Assembly: GCA_934486825.1 (NCBI GenBank)
Contig: CAKSQF010000001.1
Location: forward strand, 34,905 to 98,904
Length of the DNA: 64,000 nt
Source of the DNA: an uncultured Eubacteriales bacterium
Lineage (GTDB): Bacteria > Bacillota > Clostridia > Oscillospirales > CAG-272
Direction: 5' to 3'
The stretch's first letter is position 1. Every line of letters begins with the position of its first letter. The translations under genes and the position numbers were made by a program. Below, in pieces: positions 5,814-64,000 of the stretch. The notes beneath the pieces are model-generated. The model was not told the origin of the DNA. It was given only the letters and a program-made list of their open reading frames with translations, and made no database searches.

Positions 5814-5864
5814 TCTGACTTTTGTCAATCGTTTTTGTAGTTTAAAAATTAAGGAGAAAAGTCA

Positions 5865-54614: not shown

Positions 54615-55535
54615 ATGGATTGGAAACAACTCAGAGTATCATGCTCAAAAGGCGATCTTGACAATGTGTGTGCTTTCATGAGCATGCTTGATAACGGACT
54701 GATGATCGAGGATTACAGCGATATCGACGAAAATCTGAAGCCCATGTACGGGGAGCTTATCGATGACAGTATATTGCATGCCGACCCAGACAGATGCTCG
54801 GTCAGTATATTTGTCCCGGAAGAAAAGCCGCTTTCCGAATATCTTTCGTTCGTAAACGAAAGATTGTCCTGTCTCGGTATCAGGGGAACGGTTGATGTCG
54901 TCGGCGTTAAAGAAGAAGACTGGTATAATGCATGGCGTGCGTATTATAAACCGGTGCATATAGGAAACAGACTTACGGTTGTGCCCGCATGGCAGGAATA
55001 TCATCCGGAGCCGAGTGAAATAACAATAAAAATGGATCCCGGTATGGCGTTCGGAACGGGTACGCATGAGACCACGCGGCTTTGCGCCGCAATGGTCGAA
55101 AGGCATATGCCTGTCGGAGCGAGAGTGCTTGATATAGGAACCGGGAGCGGAATATTGTCGCTTTTCGCACTGAAGCTCGGCGCAAAAGAGGCATATGCGT
55201 ATGATATAGACCCGGTTGCCGTGAGAGTCGCACGTGAAAACGCCAAGGATAACTGCGTGGAGAACTTTTTTTGTGACACCTCCGATCTGCTTAAAAATGT
55301 TGATCTTTCGCACGGTCCTTTTGATTTCGCAATGGCAAATATCGTTGCGGACATACTTATAAGAATGTCGGAAAATGTGTCCGATTACCTGAATAAAGGT
55401 GCAAAGCTCGTCTGCTCGGGAATAATTGAAGGAAGATGTGACGATGTAAAGGACGCAATGATATCGCACGGCTTTGATCTTTGCGATGAAGCTTCCGAAA
55501 ATGACTGGAAGGTACTTGTTTTTGTAAAAAGATAA
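54615..55535 (+). CDS. prmA: Ribosomal protein L11 methyltransferase
   Basis: Carries DPGMAFGTGTHETT and VLDIGTGSGILS (SAM motif I). It sits in the dnaK-operon context. Confidence 0.92.
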   Translation: MDWKQLRVSCSKGDLDNVCAFMSMLDNGLMIEDYSDIDENLKPMYGELIDDSILHADPDRCSVSIFVPEEKPLSEYLSFVNERLSCLGIRGTVDVVGVKEEDWYNAWRAYYKPVHIGNRLTVVPAWQEYHPEPSEITIKMDPGMAFGTGTHETTRLCAAMVERHMPVGARVLDIGTGSGILSLFALKLGAKEAYAYDIDPVAVRVARENAKDNCVENFFCDTSDLLKNVDLSHGPFDFAMANIVADILIRMSENVSDYLNKGAKLVCSGIIEGRCDDVKDAMISHGFDLCDEASENDWKVLVFVKR

Positions 55536-56656: not shown

Positions 56657-56782
56657 ATGAAAATTACTTACACAGAAAACAAAAACGGCATCTATTATCC
56701 GAATTTGAGTTTGCCGACAGGCACAACCTATTCCATCGAAAAATATGGTCGGGTGTACCCCCATGAAGGGGTTATGGTGTAA
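56657..56782 (+). pseudogene. TnpV-like N-terminal fragment (41 codons)
   Basis: MKITYTENKNGIYYPNLSLP....KYGR resembles the conserved N-terminus of TnpV-type proteins of clostridial transposons and ICEs (recalled pattern MxITYxxxGDYxxPNLxLP...GKYG). It is truncated and overlaps the convergent HTH gene. Confidence 0.35.
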
Positions 56783-57060
56783 ACATTGCTGGTTTTGCCG
56801 CCGGAAGCGGTGTATTGATGCCGTTTTTCCAGCATTCCTTTGGCACACAGCACCTTGATGGCGCGGTCGACTGTCTCGACTTTTTGAATACCGCATTCCT
56901 TTGCAATCGTGCGTCGGGACGGATACGCAACTCCGGTTTCCCGGTTGCTGTGCATTGCAATGCAGCAGTACACTGCGAGATCGCGCGGGGAGAGTCCCAT
57001 GCTGAAAATTTGATTGTCCACCTGAAAAAAGCCTCCGGGTTGCCATCTTCCCGTCTTCAT
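56728..57060 (-). CDS. Helix-turn-helix domain protein (HTH_36 / replication-initiator-like accessory protein of mobilizable elements)
   Basis: Carries DLAVYCCIAMHSNRETGVAYPSRRTIAKECGIQKVETVDRAIKVLCAKGML, a winged-HTH pattern. Its start overlaps the relaxase stop (ATGA). Confidence 0.6.
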   Translation of the reverse strand: MKTGRWQPGGFFQVDNQIFSMGLSPRDLAVYCCIAMHSNRETGVAYPSRRTIAKECGIQKVETVDRAIKVLCAKGMLEKRHQYTASGGKTSNVYTITPSWGYTRPYFSME

Positions 57061-58547
57061 CGGTCGTTCCTCCCGTCTTTTCTGATGTTTGACGCATTCG
57101 TAACCGTTCCGTCATCCGGCGATTGGTAGCGATCCGGAGCATCGCATTCTATGGTGTGGCGTTCCTCAGGGGGCAGGTCATATTCCCGCCATGTTTTCCG
57201 CATACGCGCGATTCGCTCGGCTTCTACCTGTTGTTCCATGACACCGGAGCGTGTAAGCAGAGCGCGAATATCTTTGCTTTCCCGGCGGATAATCGAAATC
57301 TCTTTTGAAACGGCATGAATTTCGGCTTTCACCGCACGTCGCGTTTCTTCCTTTGTACAACGACGGATCCCGTTGTAAAGATCACTCCGTTCGCGGGTCA
57401 GCGTCGCAAGTTTTGCTTCGTTTCGGTCAAGAAACCGGTCGCAATCTTCCTTTGTTTCCAAATGCTCCCGCCCCATCAGGACCGCCTGCCGTGAGTAAAG
57501 TTCCATTTTATTTCGCGCTTCCATCATATCGGGAGTCAGAGGTTCGTAGCGCTCCGGCGGTTCTTCCGGCGCGAGGAGGTCGGGACCGCCGAGAAGTGCC
57601 ACAAAAGCGCAGACAAGCCCCAACAGCGACGGTTTTCTGCGGTATTGTTCCAAACACCAGGGAAGCGGCGCGGGACGCTCCCGCATTCGCAGGTTGTATG
57701 CGCGGTAGCCCTTGTAATAATGTTCGTAGTCCGGGCGACGGCGGCAACGGTTCATGCGCAGAACGGAATCCATACGTTCGCGTGTAAATTCTTCTCCAAG
57801 GTGATAAATGCGAACCGGTTTTGCCTCTGAAAGTCTGCGGATTGTCGCATATTTTCTCCCGAAATTCGGCTGAAAATCATAGCCCATATCGTGCAGATGG
57901 TGGCAGAGATCATCCCATCCCGAAGAGATCTCCAAAGCGTCCCGAATGGCTTGTGCCATGAGGGAATAGCGTGTTTCCTTTCCCGCTTTTTCGGCAAAGT
58001 GAATCTGCCTCGGTGTCTTTTTACCGGGATTTTCAATCACGGAAAGGCGGTGCATTTGACACAATTCATCCGAAATCCGGCGCAGTTTCCGATATTCACC
58101 CTTGTTGTCATCGTACTTTTTCCCGTCAAGAAAGGACACGCTGTTCCACACAAAATGGTTGTGCAAATGGGCTTTGTTGAGATGGGTTGCAACCACGACC
58201 TGATAGCGATCTCCCCACATTGCACGGGCAAGTGCAACCCCGATGGCATGGCATTGTTCGGGCGTGATTTCTCCCGGCTTGAAGCTTTGACAGGCGTGGT
58301 ACGCAACGTTGCCACCGGTTTTTCCGAAATGTTGCTGTACCCGGAGCATGGCTTCTGTCGGATCGCCGTTACAGTTCAGTGCCGTGATAAAAAGTCGCTT
58401 TTCCTCCATTGGGGCTTCGGTTTTGACCTCGTCAGTTGCATAGTGCAAGGCGGTTGAAAGTCCGACCGCCGTTTTTTGCGGATTGTCTGCATACGCAATG
58501 ACCCGCGCAACACTGTCCTTGATCGGCCACATTTTAGTCGTTGCCAT
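57057..58547 (-). CDS. Relaxase/mobilisation nuclease (MobA/VirD2 superfamily)
   Basis: N-terminus MATTKMWPIKDS...AYADNPQKT and the histidine triad HLNKAHLHNHFVWNSV. The ATG at 58547 lies 6 nt after GGGAGG. Confidence 0.8.
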   Translation of the reverse strand: MATTKMWPIKDSVARVIAYADNPQKTAVGLSTALHYATDEVKTEAPMEEKRLFITALNCNGDPTEAMLRVQQHFGKTGGNVAYHACQSFKPGEITPEQCHAIGVALARAMWGDRYQVVVATHLNKAHLHNHFVWNSVSFLDGKKYDDNKGEYRKLRRISDELCQMHRLSVIENPGKKTPRQIHFAEKAGKETRYSLMAQAIRDALEISSGWDDLCHHLHDMGYDFQPNFGRKYATIRRLSEAKPVRIYHLGEEFTRERMDSVLRMNRCRRRPDYEHYYKGYRAYNLRMRERPAPLPWCLEQYRRKPSLLGLVCAFVALLGGPDLLAPEEPPERYEPLTPDMMEARNKMELYSRQAVLMGREHLETKEDCDRFLDRNEAKLATLTRERSDLYNGIRRCTKEETRRAVKAEIHAVSKEISIIRRESKDIRALLTRSGVMEQQVEAERIARMRKTWREYDLPPEERHTIECDAPDRYQSPDDGTVTNASNIRKDGRNDR

Positions 58548-58971
58548 TCGCATCCTCCCAAAGGTCGCCCGCACGGTAGGCGGCATATTCCCGCTCTCCG
58601 TCCTTGCCGCAGAACTTTTCCGTGACCCGGCGAAAGGTGTTCAGGGACGCTTCTATGGAAGTCAGTTCACCGGAAAAATCCGCGCCGTTTTGCATCTTTC
58701 TGCGTACTTCCGCGCAGAGCATGGAAAGGTCGTCCCGCAGATCATAAAAGGCACGCGGCGGGATTGCACGCACCTGCACACCGCAGGAAAGTTGGCGCAA
58801 CAGTTCCGAAACCGTCAGCCCGACCGCATGGGCAAGCAGTGTGATATGCCGCTTTTCTTCGGGGGTTACCCGCACATTGATGCCAACATCCCGTTCCCGC
58901 TTTGTCTCTTTTGCTTGCCCGCGCAGGAACCGATTCATAGCTTGGCGCTGTTCTTTTTTGCTGTTTGTCAT
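58534..58971 (-). CDS. mobC: MobC-family relaxosome accessory protein
   Basis: Carries INVRVTPEEKRHITLLAHAVGLTVSELLRQL, a ribbon-helix-helix-like MobC signature. It lies directly upstream of the relaxase and overlaps it by 14 nt. An alternative ATG is at 58977. Confidence 0.7.
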   Translation of the reverse strand: MTNSKKEQRQAMNRFLRGQAKETKRERDVGINVRVTPEEKRHITLLAHAVGLTVSELLRQLSCGVQVRAIPPRAFYDLRDDLSMLCAEVRRKMQNGADFSGELTSIEASLNTFRRVTEKFCGKDGEREYAAYRAGDLWEDANGND

Positions 58972-59471
58972 CTTCATTCTCCTTTGCTTTTTTTGATGTG
59001 GGATGTAAGAAATGCGGGGCGAAACGGCGGGGTTATAGGGGCGGCACAGCCCCAATCGTCCGAAAAGGACGCAAGGAAACGGGATTGCCTGCCATACACG
59101 GTGGCAACACCGTGCGGCAATACCTTTCCTATGCTCGCTAAACGACCGGACAGCCTCTTTCAGCGCTCCCGTTTCGCGTATTGCCCGGAAAAAAACAGCA
59201 AAAAAGCCGCTCACAAAAGAAATACCGAAACCATGCACATGGTCTGTACTTCCTATGTAAGCGGCTTATGCCACAAGCGGGAGAACCCGCAAAAAAATAT
59301 TTGGTTGAATATGTTTAACCCTGCCGGGCAATCCTGATACTGGAGGAGTCTGCGCCGATGAAGGGCATATAGAATACCACAATTCTTGCCGTTTGTCAAG
59401 ACATTTTGGAAAAGTTTTTCGGAAAAAGTTGTCGAATGGTCGCAAATTGTCCGAAAAGAGGACAGAAAGAC

Positions 59472-59500
59472 TTGCAAAATGTTCCATGATATGGTATACT
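59472..59500 (+). promoter_or_regulatory. Sigma-70 promoter of the XRE-hsd operon
   Basis: TTGCAA (59472-59477), a 17-nt spacer ending TGG, then TATACT (59495-59500). Confidence 0.6.
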
Positions 59501-59535
59501 ATAAAATGAGAAAAATTAAAGCCGGAGGGAACCCA

Positions 59536-59838
59536 ATGGATGAACGGCAAAGAGCAACGCTGATCCGCAATATGACCGACAACCTGCCCACCCTGCGCAA
59601 GCGGATGGACATCTCGCAGGCAGAGTTTGCCGCGCTGATCGGCGTCAGCCGCAGCACGCTTGCGGCAATCGAAAATCATAAACGCCCCATGACATGGAAT
59701 ATGTTTCTGGCTCTGCTCCTGATCTTTACGAAGAACAAGGAGACGGACAAGCTGTTGAACGCGATGGAGATTTATACAGACGAGCTGAACGGGATTATCA
59801 AACACAGAGAACAGGACGGAGGACAAAACAATGGCTGA
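59536..59838 (+). CDS. XRE-family HTH transcriptional regulator, translationally coupled to hsdM
   Basis: Carries [38 protein letters not shown], an HTH_3 pattern. RBS is GGAGGGA. Its stop overlaps the hsdM start (ATGGCTGA). Confidence 0.75.
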
Positions 59839-61333
59839 AAAAACAACCGCCGACATCGGCTTTGAAAAACAGATATGGGACGCCGCGTGCGTGCTGCGCG
59901 GGAATATGGACGCCTCGGAATACAAAAATGTGGTGCTGGGGCTTATCTTCTTAAAATACATCTCCGACCGTTTCGAGGAGAAGCACCGCGAGCTTGTCGC
60001 GGAAGGCGACGGCTTCGAGGAGGACATCGACGAATACACCTCCGAGGGGATTTTCTTTGTGCCGCAGGGCGCAAGATGGGGCGACATTGCCGCCAAGGCG
60101 CACACACCGGAGATCGGCACAGCGATTGACGAGGCGATGCGCGCGATCGAGAAGGACAACAAGCGCCTGAAAGACATTCTGCCGAAAAACTTTGCCCGTC
60201 CGGAATTGGACAAGCGGCGGCTGGGCGAGGTAGTCGACCTCTTTACCAACATCCGCATGATCGAGCACGGGGACGAAAAAGACATTCTCGGCAGAACCTA
60301 CGAATACTGCCTTTCCAAATTTGCCGAGCAGGAGGGCAAACTGGCGGGCGAATTCTACACGCCGTCCTGCGTGGTGCGCACACTGGTGGAAGTTCTGCAA
60401 CCCTATCACGGGCGGGTGTATGACCCCTGCTGCGGGAGCGGCGGAATGTTTGTGCAGTCGGCGAAATTTGTCGAGAGCCATACCGGAAATATCAACGACA
60501 TTTCGGTCTACGGGCAGGATTCCAACCCGACCACATGGAAAATGGCGCAGATGAACCTTGCCATTCGCGGTATTGATGCCGACCTCGGCAAATTCAATGC
60601 CGATACCTTCTTTAACGATTGCCACCCGACCCTGCGCGCGGATTTTATCATGGCAAATCCGCCGTTTAACCTCTCGGATTGGGGCGCGGACAAGCTGGCG
60701 GACGATGTGCGGTGGCAGTACGGAATGCCGCCGTCCGGCAACGCCAACTTTGCATGGCTTCAGCACATGATTTACCACCTTGCGCCAAACGGGCGCATCG
60801 GCATGGTGCTGGCGAACGGCTCGCTGTCCTCGCAGTCGGGCGGTGAAGGTGAAATCCGCAAAAATATCATCAATGCAGATCTGGTGGACTGCATCGTTGC
60901 CATGCCGACGCAGCTGTTCTATACCACGCAGATTCCGGTTTCGCTGTGGTTCCTCTCCAAGAACAAGAAGCAGAAGGGCAAAACGCTGTTTATTGATGCG
61001 CGCAAGCTCGGCACGATGGTCTCGCGCAAGAACCGCGAGCTGACCGACATGGACATCCGGAAGATTGCCGACACCTACAACGCATTTGCGGACGGCACGC
61101 TGACCGACCAAAAAGGCTTTTGCGCCGTGGCGACCACGCAGGACATCGCAAAGCAGGACTACATTCTCACTCCGGGGCGATATGTCGGCATTGAGGAGCA
61201 GGCGGACGACGGCGAACCGTTCGATGACAAAATGAAGCGCCTGACCGGAGAACTCGCAGGGCTGTTTGAGAAGTCGCACGAGTTGGAACAGGAGATACGC
61301 GAGAAACTGGGGGCGATTGGGTATGAGGTGTGA
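59831..61333 (+). CDS. hsdM: Type I restriction-modification system, DNA methyltransferase subunit M (N6-adenine)
   Basis: N-terminal HsdM_N region [41 protein letters not shown] motif [11 protein letters not shown] and catalytic IMANPPFN. Confidence 0.93.
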
Positions 61334-62504
61334 GTATCGTCAGCTTGGAGATGTGGCAATACAATTTATAGATGGCGACAGGGGAAAGAATTACCCAAGC
61401 AGCAACGAATTCTCAAATGTTGGCTATTGCCTTTTCTTAAATGCAAAAAATGTAACTCCGGATGGATTTTCTTTTGGTGAAGTATCTTTCATAAGCCAAG
61501 AGAAGGACGCCATGCTCCGAAAAGGAAAGCTGGAAAAGAACGATGTGGTATTGACCACACGCGGCACAGTTGGTAATGTAGCTTTTTACGGGGAGAGAGT
61601 TTTGTACTCTAATGCAAGAATCAATTCTGGAATGCTTATAATTCGCCCTGATCCATCCGTTTTTTTTCCGGAATATGTATATTGGTTGTTTCGTTCTGAT
61701 ATTATTCAAAATCAAATTAAAAGATTTTGTTCAGGTATGGCGCAACCTCAACTTCCGATTTCTTCAATTAGAAAATTTGAGATTCCATTGGTTAACATTA
61801 AAACTCAAAAGAAAATCGCCGCCATTCTTTCCGCACTGGATGAAAAAATCGCTACAAATCGGGCGATAAACGATAATTTAGCTGATCTCCTGCAAACGAT
61901 ATATCAAGAGCGGTTCGGCAATGACATTTTGGCAGTAAATCAGGGAGTCCTCTCGGATATTTGCTCATATTCAAGAGACAAAGTAGCTGTCTCTGAGTTG
62001 AACGTCAGAACCTACTTCTCAACGGAAAATATGCTGTCGGGAAAAGCTGGTTCAACCGAGGCGACAAGCCTACCAACTACATCACAGACAACCGCTTGCC
62101 ATAAAGGTGATACGTTGATTTCCAACATTCGTCCTTACTTTAAGAAGATTGTCTACTGTGAGGACAAATGTGGCTGCTCAACCGATGTTCTTTGCTTTAC
62201 GCCAAGTCAGCCGCGATACTCGACGTACCTATTCAGCACCCTATATGCCGACAAATTCTTCGCATTTATGGTTGCTGGATCGAAAGGAACAAAAATGCCT
62301 CGTGGAGATAAGCAACAGATTATGACATACCCTATTGTTCTACCATCAGAAGAAGAGTTAGCCAGGTTTAATACCATTGCTTTACCGCTTATTGATCAGA
62401 TTTATTCTTATAGGGCTGAAAACAAGCGACTTTCTTTACTGAGAGATACACTTCTTACCAAGTTGATGTCCGGCGAGATTGATGTCTCTGACATTCAGCT
62501 CTAA
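61323..62504 (+). CDS. hsdS: Type I restriction-modification system, specificity subunit S (two target-recognition domains)
   Basis: Its ATG overlaps the hsdM stop. The central conserved helix is [33 protein letters not shown] and the C-terminal one is [22 protein letters not shown]. Confidence 0.88.
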
Positions 62505-62541
62505 GCCGCTAAATTATCATTCATTATAAAAGGAGCGTATA

Positions 62542-63285
62542 ATGTCGAAAATTAAAGTTGATATTGATGCTATCACAGGCAATCTGAAAAATATCGGATA
62601 TATTATAAACGATATCGTTGTCGGGGATAACAACGGAACTAATTGGAAGATTGCATTTTCTAATAGCGGAGCTATTGCTACGATCTATGATTCGAATAGA
62701 GTAAAAAACACAGTTGTAAATGGTAAATGTAATCAAGCAGAAAAAGAACAGCTGAAATCAATCATTGACGGGCTTAAAAGTGGAGAATATACAGCAGATC
62801 CGCTTAATGAAACTATTGTAAAACTGATACTTTCCAGAAAAGAAGATTACTATTATGATTTCAAAGAAACACAATATGGGGAGAATAAAAGGTATGATTT
62901 GCTGCATGATATCATTTGCCTTCTGAATAATACGGCGAATAGAGAGGCATATTTGATTATTGGGGTAACAAACGATTATGAACCTATTGGAGTAGAGCAA
63001 AGCATTGAGAGCAACAATTTGATTGACTGGTTCAAACATCTTGCCTTTGCAGGAAATGTTGTACCTGACATTGAGGTCAAACACCTGTTTTATACATATA
63101 AAAAAATTGATGTAATTGTCTGTAAGCCTTCTTTCAATGTACCATACTATCTTGAAAAAAGAGAAGGTAAAGTGGAGCCTTTTCACATATACACACGTGT
63201 AGGAGATACTAATACACCTGTCAACGAAAATGCCTCTCATGAGGATGTGTGCAAGTTGTGGAAGTACCATTTTTCTAATAATTGA
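62542..63285 (+). CDS. Two-domain protein between hsdS and hsdR. The N-terminal ~90 aa form a small alpha/beta module resembling the RNase HIII N-terminal (TBP-like) domain. The C-terminal ~150 aa form an AlbA_2 (Schlafen-like, former divergent AAA_4) domain.
   Basis: RBS AAAGGAG 7 nt upstream. The C-terminal pattern RKEDYYYDFKE...LLHDIICLLNNTANREAYLIIGVTNDYEPIGV...IEVKHLFYTYKKIDVIVCKPSFNVPYYLEK...HIYTRVGDTNTP follows the AlbA_2 consensus (E..EFK ... aNt.GG.l.iGv.d.g.i.G ... v.vi.v..s..PyY ... yiRvGs.t). The N-terminal WKIAFSNSGAIATIYDSNRVKNTVVNGK resembles the ...vtvY.sGKvl.QG strand-turn motif. Confidence 0.55.
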   Translation: MSKIKVDIDAITGNLKNIGYIINDIVVGDNNGTNWKIAFSNSGAIATIYDSNRVKNTVVNGKCNQAEKEQLKSIIDGLKSGEYTADPLNETIVKLILSRKEDYYYDFKETQYGENKRYDLLHDIICLLNNTANREAYLIIGVTNDYEPIGVEQSIESNNLIDWFKHLAFAGNVVPDIEVKHLFYTYKKIDVIVCKPSFNVPYYLEKREGKVEPFHIYTRVGDTNTPVNENASHEDVCKLWKYHFSNN

Positions 63286-63303
63286 TGATAGGGAGAAATA
63301 ATT

Positions 63304-64000
63304 ATGTCATTCACCGAATCTACATACGAAAATGCCGTAATACAACTGTTTGAAGGCATGGGCTACACGCACATATACGCGCCGGACATGGGGCGGGAGG
63401 ACTTTTCCGATCCGCTTATGGGTGGCGTTTTGCGTGACGCGCTGGTTCGCATCAATCGTGGCTTGCCGTTGGAGGCTATCGGTGAGGCACTCTCCAAAAT
63501 CCGCAATTTTGAGGGCGGCAGTCTCGTGGAGAAGAACCGCGTCTTTACGGGCTATTTGCAGGACGGCGTGGAGGTCAACTATACCGTGGGTGGCGAGACC
63601 CGCGCGGCGCTCGTCCGTCTGGTGGACTTCGAGAAGCCGGAAAACAACGATTTCGCGGTGGTCAATCAGTATACCTACATCGAAAACGGCAACAACCGCC
63701 GCCCCGACATCATCCTGTTTGTCAACGGTCTGCCGCTCGTGCTGATGGAGCTCAAAAGCCCCGCCAAAGAGGACGCCGGCGCAGAGGATGCCTATAACCA
63801 GCTGCGCAACTATATGCAGGACATCCCGTCCCTGTTCATCTACAACGCCGTCTGCGTGATCAGCGACCTTTCCACCAACCGCGCGGGCACGATTACCTCC
63901 GGCTTTGACCGCTTTATGGAGTGGAAAACCAAGGACGGCAGATACGAAAACACCGCCTATGCGCAATTTGACACCTTTTATGAGGGGATGTTCCCGAAAG
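63304..64000 (+). CDS. hsdR: Type I restriction enzyme, endonuclease/translocase subunit R (N-terminal part; continues beyond the window)
   Basis: My manual translation gives MSFTESTYENAVIQLFEGMGYTHIY...NNRRPDIILFVNGLPLVLMELKSPA...AYNQLRNYMQDIPSLFIYNA. This is the HsdR N-terminal PD-(D/E)xK nuclease domain (D...ELK). The frame stays open to nt 64000. Confidence 0.88.
   Translation, partial: MSFTESTYENAVIQLFEGMGYTHIYAPDMGREDFSDPLMGGVLRDALVRINRGLPLEAIGEALSKIRNFEGGSLVEKNRVFTGYLQDGVEVNYTVGGETRAALVRLVDFEKPENNDFAVVNQYTYIENGNNRRPDIILFVNGLPLVLMELKSPAKEDAGAEDAYNQLRNYMQDIPSLFIYNAVCVISDLSTNRAGTITSGFDRFMEWKTKDGRYENTAYAQFDTFYEGMFPK

Follow-up and report, generated by a model that had tools for sequence, protein, structure and literature searches.

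Bacterial Schlafen proteins, kin of human SLFN11/13 and SAMD9, have only recently been shown to act as phage-activated tRNases. RorSlfn5 is a phage-activated tRNase requiring Ex4DxK (Perez Taboada et al. 2026, PMC13056530), the Ex4(E/D)xK motif being needed both for its defence and for tRNA cleavage (PMC13056530), and in the CRISPR-associated Schlafen CbCash (PDB 9ylu) the residues E17, D22 and K24 form a Mg2+ centre that cuts the T- and anticodon loops of tRNA (PMC13462974). More than half of Schlafen homologues are linked to restriction-modification (R-M) or other nucleases (PMC13462974), and 'TBP-like domains' account for 1.5% of bacterial Schlafen fusions (PMC13056530). A further precedent is PrrC, which is almost exclusively embedded in Type I R-M systems (bioRxiv 10.1101/2024.01.29.577857). 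Here, a Schlafen gene embedded in a Type I operon is described in a 64,000-nt stretch of DNA (the window) from an uncultured Eubacteriales bacterium of the CAG-272 lineage (GCA_934486825.1, contig CAKSQF010000001.1, positions 34,905 to 98,904). The 247-aa product joins a probable N-terminal TBP-like module to a C-terminal Schlafen/AlbA_2 nuclease core, and the gene is read as a compact prokaryotic Schlafen (pSlfn) nuclease, a latent, autonomous tRNase effector co-expressed with the restriction system (probability roughly 55%).

The restriction operon is Type IC-like, with the Schlafen gene (slfn) between hsdS and hsdR. HsdM resembles the M protein of EcoR124II (6e-41) more than that of EcoKI (3e-23), and the only PDB relatives of HsdR are the Type IC EcoR124I/II HsdR proteins (E 5e-30); the complete hsdR, read from the contig beyond the window, encodes 1022 aa. 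The slfn open reading frame (ORF) runs on the plus strand from an ATG at 62542 to a stop at 63283-63285 and is preceded by the ribosome-binding site (RBS) AAAGGAG, 7 nt 5' of the ATG. It lies 37 nt after the hsdS stop (62504) and 18 nt before the hsdR ATG (63304), all on one strand. These details agree exactly, by ORF list and Pfam, with the original prediction, and every motif quoted there is present in the protein (KEDYYYDFKE, NNTANREAYLIIGVTNDYEPIGV, KKIDVIVCKPSFNVPYYL, IYTRVGDTNTP and AIATIYDSNRVKNTVVNGK). The same prediction had called co-transcription almost certain; the shared strand and the absence of any terminator-like site on the plus strand from the hsdM end to the hsdR start are compatible with this, but do not prove it. 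A promoter-like site at 62514-62543 was considered as the promoter of the Schlafen gene and rejected, as it overlaps the start codon.

The ORF is not a chance one, because a database search found 407 homologues at E <= 1e-3, its AlphaFold2 model is confident (mean predicted local distance difference test score (pLDDT) 92.7, predicted template modelling score 0.88, from a 37-sequence family alignment) and it is open in DNA of 33-36% GC. The best 120 of the 407 homologues are all full length (243-280 aa, 48-100% identity). No NCBIfam model matches the protein, and NCBI labels its relatives just 'ATP-binding protein'. Searches by tblastn gave zero matches among 50,697 phage genome records; among plasmids no two-domain member was found, matches being confined to the Schlafen domain at 30-39% identity, and PHROGs gave a single match, through the nuclease domain, to family 29016, of unknown function.

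The C-terminal half is recognized by Pfam SLFN_AlbA_2 (PF04326) over residues 101-228 (43.3 bits against a cut-off of 25.3, E 6e-11), with the profile covered end to end (positions 1-118 of 118), and by the PADLOC family PDC-S50 over residues 88-245 (E 5.6e-51), although in this case only at profile positions 5-168 of 387. The residues E101, D106 and K108, forming an Ex4DxK motif, are invariant across the 37 aligned family members and align with E17, D22 and K24 of CbCash, the best solved relative in a comparison of the family profile with the PDB (E 1.8e-4); a single-sequence PDB search gave only a spurious match (E 0.21), and CbCash was reached through the family profile. Foldseek matches in the PDB include the bacterial AlbA_2 proteins 3lmm (E 4.5e-5) and 2kyy, the DNA-binding/tRNase domain of SAMD9 (7ksp, 9o0d) and SLFN11/12/13/14, and among viral models giant-virus AlbA_2 and poxvirus Schlafen-like proteins. 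The C-terminal AlbA_2/Schlafen domain and the two-domain layout, both anticipated from the sequence, are borne out by these matches, by the intact triad and by the confident model. Because of the PF04326 match, the structural matches and the intact triad aligned with CbCash, the core is predicted to be catalytically competent at the level of sequence and modelled structure, with its activity and target inferred. Besides PF04326 no further Pfam domain and no helix-turn-helix (HTH) domain was found in the protein, which ends at residue 247; it is accordingly distinct, as had been proposed, from the long AlbA_2 + HATPase + winged HTH proteins that carry the annotation 'RecG-like ATP-dependent helicase'.

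The N-terminal module is modelled as an antiparallel four-stranded sheet with a helix at each end (H8-17, E22-28, E34-39, E44-49, E58-61, H65-80), and residues 1-98 modelled alone reach a pLDDT of 84. Its top Foldseek matches in the PDB are the TBP-like domains of RnlA, which are weak (E 0.13-0.33, probability 0.6-0.8, TM 0.41-0.45), and RNase HIII is absent from the top 50. A broadened profile of the domain matches archaeal TBP weakly (E 0.057), with a beta-hairpin and helix aligned, and hhalign against a thin alignment of RNase HIII N-domains reaches a probability of 52% across 39 columns; the motif of the beta-hairpin, '..T.Y.S....V..GK', can be lined up with the RNase HIII N-domain as well as with TBP. 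The Pfam model of the RNase HIII N-domain (PF11858, DUF3378) has no match to the window protein at E <= 1 and a sub-threshold match only in one divergent family member, P0147 (16.8 bits against a cut-off of 27), leaving DUF3378 membership unproven. The matches are individually sub-significant, but they agree with one another and are consistent with the published 'TBP-like' Schlafen fusions, and the module is probably TBP-like. The resemblance to TBP and RNase HIII suggested in the original prediction therefore finds moderate support from RnlA, TBP and RNase HIII, every one of these matches being sub-significant.

Several properties set the N-domain apart. In the 37-sequence alignment its mean pairwise identity is 68%, against 58% for the nuclease domain, and it remains ~65% identical between two Type I families with HsdM proteins only ~24% identical. 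A profile search of 1.84 billion representatives returned 27 matches, nearly all from the same family or fragments of it; the exceptions are one fusion to an AriAB-like ATPase, one 95-aa stand-alone protein (P0141) and one repeat-protein false positive. A fusion to TIR, which the original prediction had named for such domains, was not among the 27 matches, the sole other architecture being the ATPase fusion, an 880-aa protein (P0139, L171:8001-10643) that joins the N-domain to an AriAB-like (PARIS-type) ABC ATPase (PADLOC AriAB, E 1.4e-27). The gene of this fusion is stand-alone and lies beside transposase remnants. AriB has been described as a tRNase (PMC13056530), TBP-like domains are needed for substrate binding in RnlA (PMC8266594), and the TBP-like domain of RNase HIII binds RNA/DNA hybrids (as cited in PMC3710099). 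By analogy, the module most likely binds nucleic acid, as a substrate or a cue, since its structural relatives do, since it changes little between hosts and between the two unrelated Type I families, and since it is also fused to an AriAB-like protein with a tRNase-type AriB effector.

The linkage of the family to hsd genes was surveyed in 30 genomic loci encoding the two-domain protein. In 19/30 an hsd gene is adjacent, and these loci fall into two unrelated Type I families. In group A (13/30), slfn lies directly 5' of a Type IC-like hsdR and the upstream flank, if present, is hsdM-hsdS, with or without a shufflon; in group B (6/30), the order is hsdM-slfn-(x)-hsdS-...-hsdR in an unrelated EcoEI-type system, often with overlapping stop and start codons, the HsdM proteins of the two groups being ~24% identical. 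Elsewhere, slfn adjoins Thoeris ThsA/ThsB (L005) or a reverse transcriptase, a metallophosphatase and a Cas3-HD protein (L011), and the remaining nine loci, several of them on short contigs, have no adjacent hsd gene, though in two of them an hsd-like match lies at a distance of 321 bp (L002) or 3,150 bp (L028). Five loci (L005, L011, L022, L023 and L030) have no hsd gene within 10 kb. As a control, 50 loci were taken from a sister family with the same nuclease subfamily in the PDC-S50 architecture (~385 aa), of which none is hsd-adjacent (0/50 versus 19/30; Fisher p = 4.7e-11). The hsd linkage of the two-domain family, predicted from the single operon, is real and specific to the architecture. 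A neighbour-joining tree places group B in a single clade and nests the non-R-M contexts within group A, and the divergences of the Schlafen protein and HsdR are moderately correlated (Spearman 0.44).

Metagenomic relatives, the closest (78% identity) included, show both arrangements, and in a widespread metagenomic variant slfn stays beside hsdR while an hsdS shufflon inverts. Two loci (L163 versus L164, 1563-5962) carry the same operon with the hsdS/recombinase segment inverted, a segment that also holds DUF7724, DUF7723 and DUF4160 genes; the inversion shows an active phase-variable hsdS shufflon next to a fixed Schlafen-hsdR pair. The EcoEI-type slfn operons contain further embedded genes, encoding HAD-family hydrolase-like proteins (~390 aa), a DUF2806 protein and a DUF4160 protein, and small unknown ORFs (~180-220 aa); these embedded or nearby genes lie at L014:12534-13691, L019:13044-14228, L168:9025-10017, L168:3407-4468 and L015:11530-12186. 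One such operon also has a Fic gene 5' of hsdM.

Within its own operon, the Schlafen gene is a cassette of ~760 bp with its own RBS, as judged from homology breakpoints, a drop in GC and a related locus in which hsdR directly follows hsdS with no cargo between (L086). The sister loci L082-L087 have 93-95% nucleotide identity to hsdM and hsdR; their homology breaks at the hsdM end, retains only short conserved central and C-terminal segments of hsdS, stops by 62516-62535 and restarts at 63292, at the hsdR RBS. The GC content of hsdS and the Schlafen gene is 33-45%, versus 55-59% for hsdM and hsdR (window 61300-63300), which suggests that hsdS and the cargo came from a lower-GC donor through recombination between the conserved hsdM and hsdR flanks. 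After the hsdS stop a conserved sequence, TAAGCCGCTAAATTATC, precedes varied cargo (window 62502-62520; L086 ~1255-1275; L083 ~5815-5835; L087 ~1322-1342), and may mark where the cassettes recombine or insert, or may be a conserved 3' element.

The hsdM-hsdR interval (61334-63303 in the window) was compared across the 80 loci with the closest HsdR relatives (L082-L161, 67-98% identity), of which one carries the Schlafen gene. The others have nothing past hsdS, an invertible hsdS shufflon (26 shufflon recombinase genes, recombinase ~327 aa) or other single genes. The cargo includes PDC-S15 (FRG domain, E 8e-149), PDC-S19 (DUF3644, E 3e-152) and PDC-S33 (RelA/SpoT-like, E 2e-119), a DUF2971 protein, a DUF4238 protein, an SNF2 helicase, and proteins without a family match, for example of 681 aa (L089), 270 aa (L082) and 262 aa (L093). 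Between hsdS and hsdR, operons of this Type IC-like family have a hypervariable slot for cargo, in which many different defence candidates occur. Payne et al. drew the PDC candidates from genes that lie inside BREX, DISARM and Type I R-M loci, and note that 96.7% of embedded genes run in the same direction as the system around them (bioRxiv 10.1101/2024.01.29.577857); the window slot is an instance of the embedding that they described.

In the favoured reading as an autonomous tRNase, the protein would be produced alongside the restriction enzyme and kept latent, probably as an inactive oligomer. Phage infection would then activate Mg2+-dependent cutting of tRNA loops, modelled on RorSlfn5 and CbCash, and the ensuing shutdown of translation would act as a second barrier to phages that have got past restriction. 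By analogy with RnlA and RNase HIII, the TBP-like domain would bind the tRNA substrate, or an RNA/DNA structure as a cue; rapidly evolving recognition of a phage protein is an unlikely role for it, and a strict need for Hsd proteins appears improbable. Autonomy is supported by the five members without an hsd gene within 10 kb, and a defence context by the operon order hsdM-hsdS-slfn-hsdR-gmrSD on a mobile element. Several points weigh on the other side. The CbCash match reaches just E 1.8e-4 and the tRNA target is extrapolated from weakly aligning relatives; the TBP-like matches are all weak (E > 0.05, or 52% by hhalign), so that binding by the N-domain is argued from analogy. At residue 144 (62971-62973), directly after the core beta-strand, 89% of the aligned family members have Asp, whereas the window protein and the relatives closest to it have Asn there and Asp at 145 instead; if residue 144 contributes to catalysis, the Asn could alter activity. 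The contrast of 19/30 with 0/50 also exceeds what would be expected of cargo in a hotspot, and could mean dependence on the restriction complex.

Such dependence is the core of the main alternative, held as less likely, in which the HsdM/S/R complex would hold the Schlafen nuclease inactive, in the manner of PrrC, until a phage anti-restriction protein of the Ocr, ArdA or Stp type disables the complex and so frees it. Embedding in a Type IC-like hsd operon, like that of PrrC in EcoprrI (PMC12707154; bioRxiv 10.1101/2024.01.29.577857), fits this idea, as do the adjacency figures and the separate embedding positions in two unrelated Type I families, one behind hsdS and the other behind hsdM with the stop and start codons overlapping, and slfn stays fixed beside hsdR during shufflon inversion. 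The strong conservation of the N-domain would be expected for a constant partner; yet its ~65% identity where HsdM has diverged to ~24% is a poor fit with a co-evolving interface, and the Spearman correlation of 0.44 with HsdR, though in line with a partnership, is equally expected from plain genetic linkage. About a third of the family has no hsd neighbour, and at least five members lie near other systems or none. Operons whose HsdR is 97-98% identical lack slfn and have different cargo or an empty slot in its place, the slot being a general site for cargo, and the protein has no ATPase or other PrrC-like regulatory domain. A bolder form of the idea, that TBP-like Schlafens are an evolutionarily independent second 'PrrC', silenced by the Type I complex and freed by anti-restriction proteins with the TBP-like domain docking or sensing, is doubtful; if true, restriction-guarding by embedded tRNases would be a convergent and general strategy in gut Bacillota.

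It is also conceivable, if rather improbable, that the AlbA_2 core and the TBP-like domain act, by binding or cutting, on DNA or RNA-DNA hybrids and not on tRNA, for example in sensing Type I cleavage products, R-loops or replication intermediates of an invader. The hybrid binding of the RNase HIII TBP-like domain (cited in PMC3710099) would suit such a role, the AlbA_2 domain of SAMD9 was crystallized with DNA (7ksp), and R-M-linked Schlafens have been speculated by the authors of one study to detect DNA-cleavage structures (PMC13462974). Both studied bacterial Schlafens cut tRNA, however, RorSlfn5 is inactive on DNA (PMC13056530; PMC13462974), and the triad is of RNase type. Very little weight is given to a selfish or regulatory insert without a defence role, such as a DNA-binding modulator of hsd expression. 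The uninformative NCBI label, the lack of an NCBIfam model and the 30% of pSlfn genes found away from defence genes (PMC13056530) would allow for it. The triad is nevertheless invariant in a nuclease domain of only ~58% pairwise identity, the neighbourhoods consist mainly of R-M, Thoeris, reverse transcriptase and Cas3-HD genes, and the nuclease domain falls in the PADLOC defence-candidate family PDC-S50; a role as hsd regulator is ranked low because the triad is invariant and an HTH domain is lacking.

Compared with the described systems, the autonomous tRNase proposed here resembles RorSlfn5 and EcoSlfn7, with which it shares the Slfn/AlbA_2 core, the Ex4(E/D)xK motif, a nuclease and an accessory domain in one chain, and a location among defence genes. 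Among bacterial Schlafens, tRNA cleavage triggered by phage and resistance to phage have been demonstrated only for RorSlfn5, EcoSlfn7 and CbCash (PMC13056530; PMC13462974). The window protein differs in that the accessory domain of the tested proteins is a C-terminal Ig-like domain or a DUF262 domain and its own is N-terminal and TBP-like; furthermore, the phage-sensing domain of RorSlfn5 is variable, whereas in the window family the nuclease varies more than the accessory domain. CbCash has the same aligned E-D-K triad and is a Mg2+-dependent tRNA loop endonuclease, but has a C-terminal Csx15 cA4 sensor, occurs in type III CRISPR loci and is activated by filament formation, none of which is evident for the window protein. 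PDC-S50 belongs to the same nuclease subfamily; its genuine members, however, are ~380-390 aa long, match profile positions 1-383 and consist of an N-terminal Slfn core and an unannotated C-terminal domain of ~220 aa, which the window protein lacks, having a TBP-like N-domain instead. As the nuclease domain alone matches, the window protein is not a PDC-S50 member. A literature search on 'PDC-S50' found nothing.

The likeness to PrrC of the EcoprrI Type IC system lies in a same-strand gene embedded in a Type IC-like hsd operon and in a predicted back-up that disables translation by targeting tRNA. PrrC combines an ABC-ATPase with HEPN and the window protein a TBP-like module with a Schlafen core and no NTPase domain, and PADLOC found no PrrC match to it; it is not a member of the PrrC family, because it has neither the ATPase nor the HEPN domain, and may still work like PrrC. 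Moreover, in contrast to the almost exclusive embedding of PrrC, the window family is embedded in about 63-73% of loci, and control by the Hsd complex, demonstrated for PrrC, is a hypothesis here. RnlA (RNase LS) and RNase HIII likewise have a small alpha/beta module N-terminal to a ribonuclease domain, but their catalytic partner is HEPN or RNase H and not Schlafen, and the similarities are sub-significant.

The published 'TBP-like' pSlfn class probably includes the window family. Embedded defence genes, bacterial Schlafen tRNases, the 'TBP-like' fusion class and the Schlafen-R-M link were all published in 2024-2026, and the novelty claimed in the original prediction was in this respect overstated, given that embedding (2024) and phage-activated Schlafen tRNases (2026) had been reported. 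The claim holds for the exact architecture, of which the three papers (bioRxiv 10.1101/2024.01.29.577857, PMC13056530 and PMC13462974) contain no experimental test. Nor do they contain a quantified Type I tie of the TBP-like Schlafen architecture but not its sister, or an accessory domain more conserved than the nuclease in this family.

How accessory domains control the Schlafen nuclease is a question that the TBP-like family could serve. At 247 aa the protein is among the smallest two-domain versions and has a confident predicted structure, and the family is common in human and animal gut Bacillota and closely bound to Type I restriction operons, which its nearest sister family is not. For these reasons it offers a convenient system for asking whether such nucleases are autonomous or guard restriction, and what the TBP-like domain does. 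The hsdS-hsdR cassette site is in turn useful for mining further defence systems.

Table 1. Coordinates of the Schlafen gene, its domains and the surrounding operon and element (window positions unless marked L081, the same contig beyond the window)
Feature	Position	Strand	Evidence
TBP-like + Schlafen (pSlfn) gene, 247 aa	62542..63285	+	Pfam, homologues, alignment, AlphaFold2
Alpha-beta4-alpha module (probably TBP-like), residues 1-80	62542..62781	+	AlphaFold2 secondary structure
Linker helix, residues 87-97	62800..62832	+	AlphaFold2 model
Schlafen/AlbA_2 nuclease core, residues 101-245	62842..63276	+	PF04326, PADLOC PDC-S50, Foldseek
Catalytic motif E101-x4-D106-x-K108	62842..62865	+	Invariant, aligned with CbCash triad
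Schlafen-only low-GC cassette, ~760 bp	62536..63291	+	Homology to sister operons lost, then regained
hsdS-to-cargo junction, conserved GCCGCTAAATTATC after hsdS stop, then cassette RBS AAAGGAG	62505..62541	+	Four-locus alignment
Xre-type HTH gene, overlaps hsdM start	59386..59838	+	Pfam HTH_3 E 5.7e-8
hsdM, Type I methyltransferase subunit, 500 aa	59831..61333	+	N6_Mtase E 3e-112, HsdM_N E 1e-30
hsdS, specificity subunit	61323..62504	+	Methylase_S E 4e-22, two stretches
hsdR N-terminus, leaves window	63304..64000	+	HSDR_N E 2e-43
Integrative mobilisable element parts	56728-59838 and L081:4553-8215	HTH_36, relaxase and NikA-like genes on minus	Pfam and contig continuation

The hsdS ORF opens mechanically at TTG 61266, the ATG listed in Table 1 being the likelier start, and the Xre-type gene is possibly a controller and the first gene of the operon. 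The hsd operon is the cargo of an integrative mobilisable element, because a MobA-type relaxase and a NikA-like gene, together with an HTH_36 gene, lie upstream on the minus strand, and the contig downstream of hsdR carries TnpV and two tyrosine-recombinase integrase genes, in addition to a GmrSD Type IV gene (GmrSD_N, GmrSD_C). Attachment-site repeats between the left end of the element and its integrase end were limited to a 12-mer, which is probably a chance match. Immediately outside the left end lies prmA (54615-55535).

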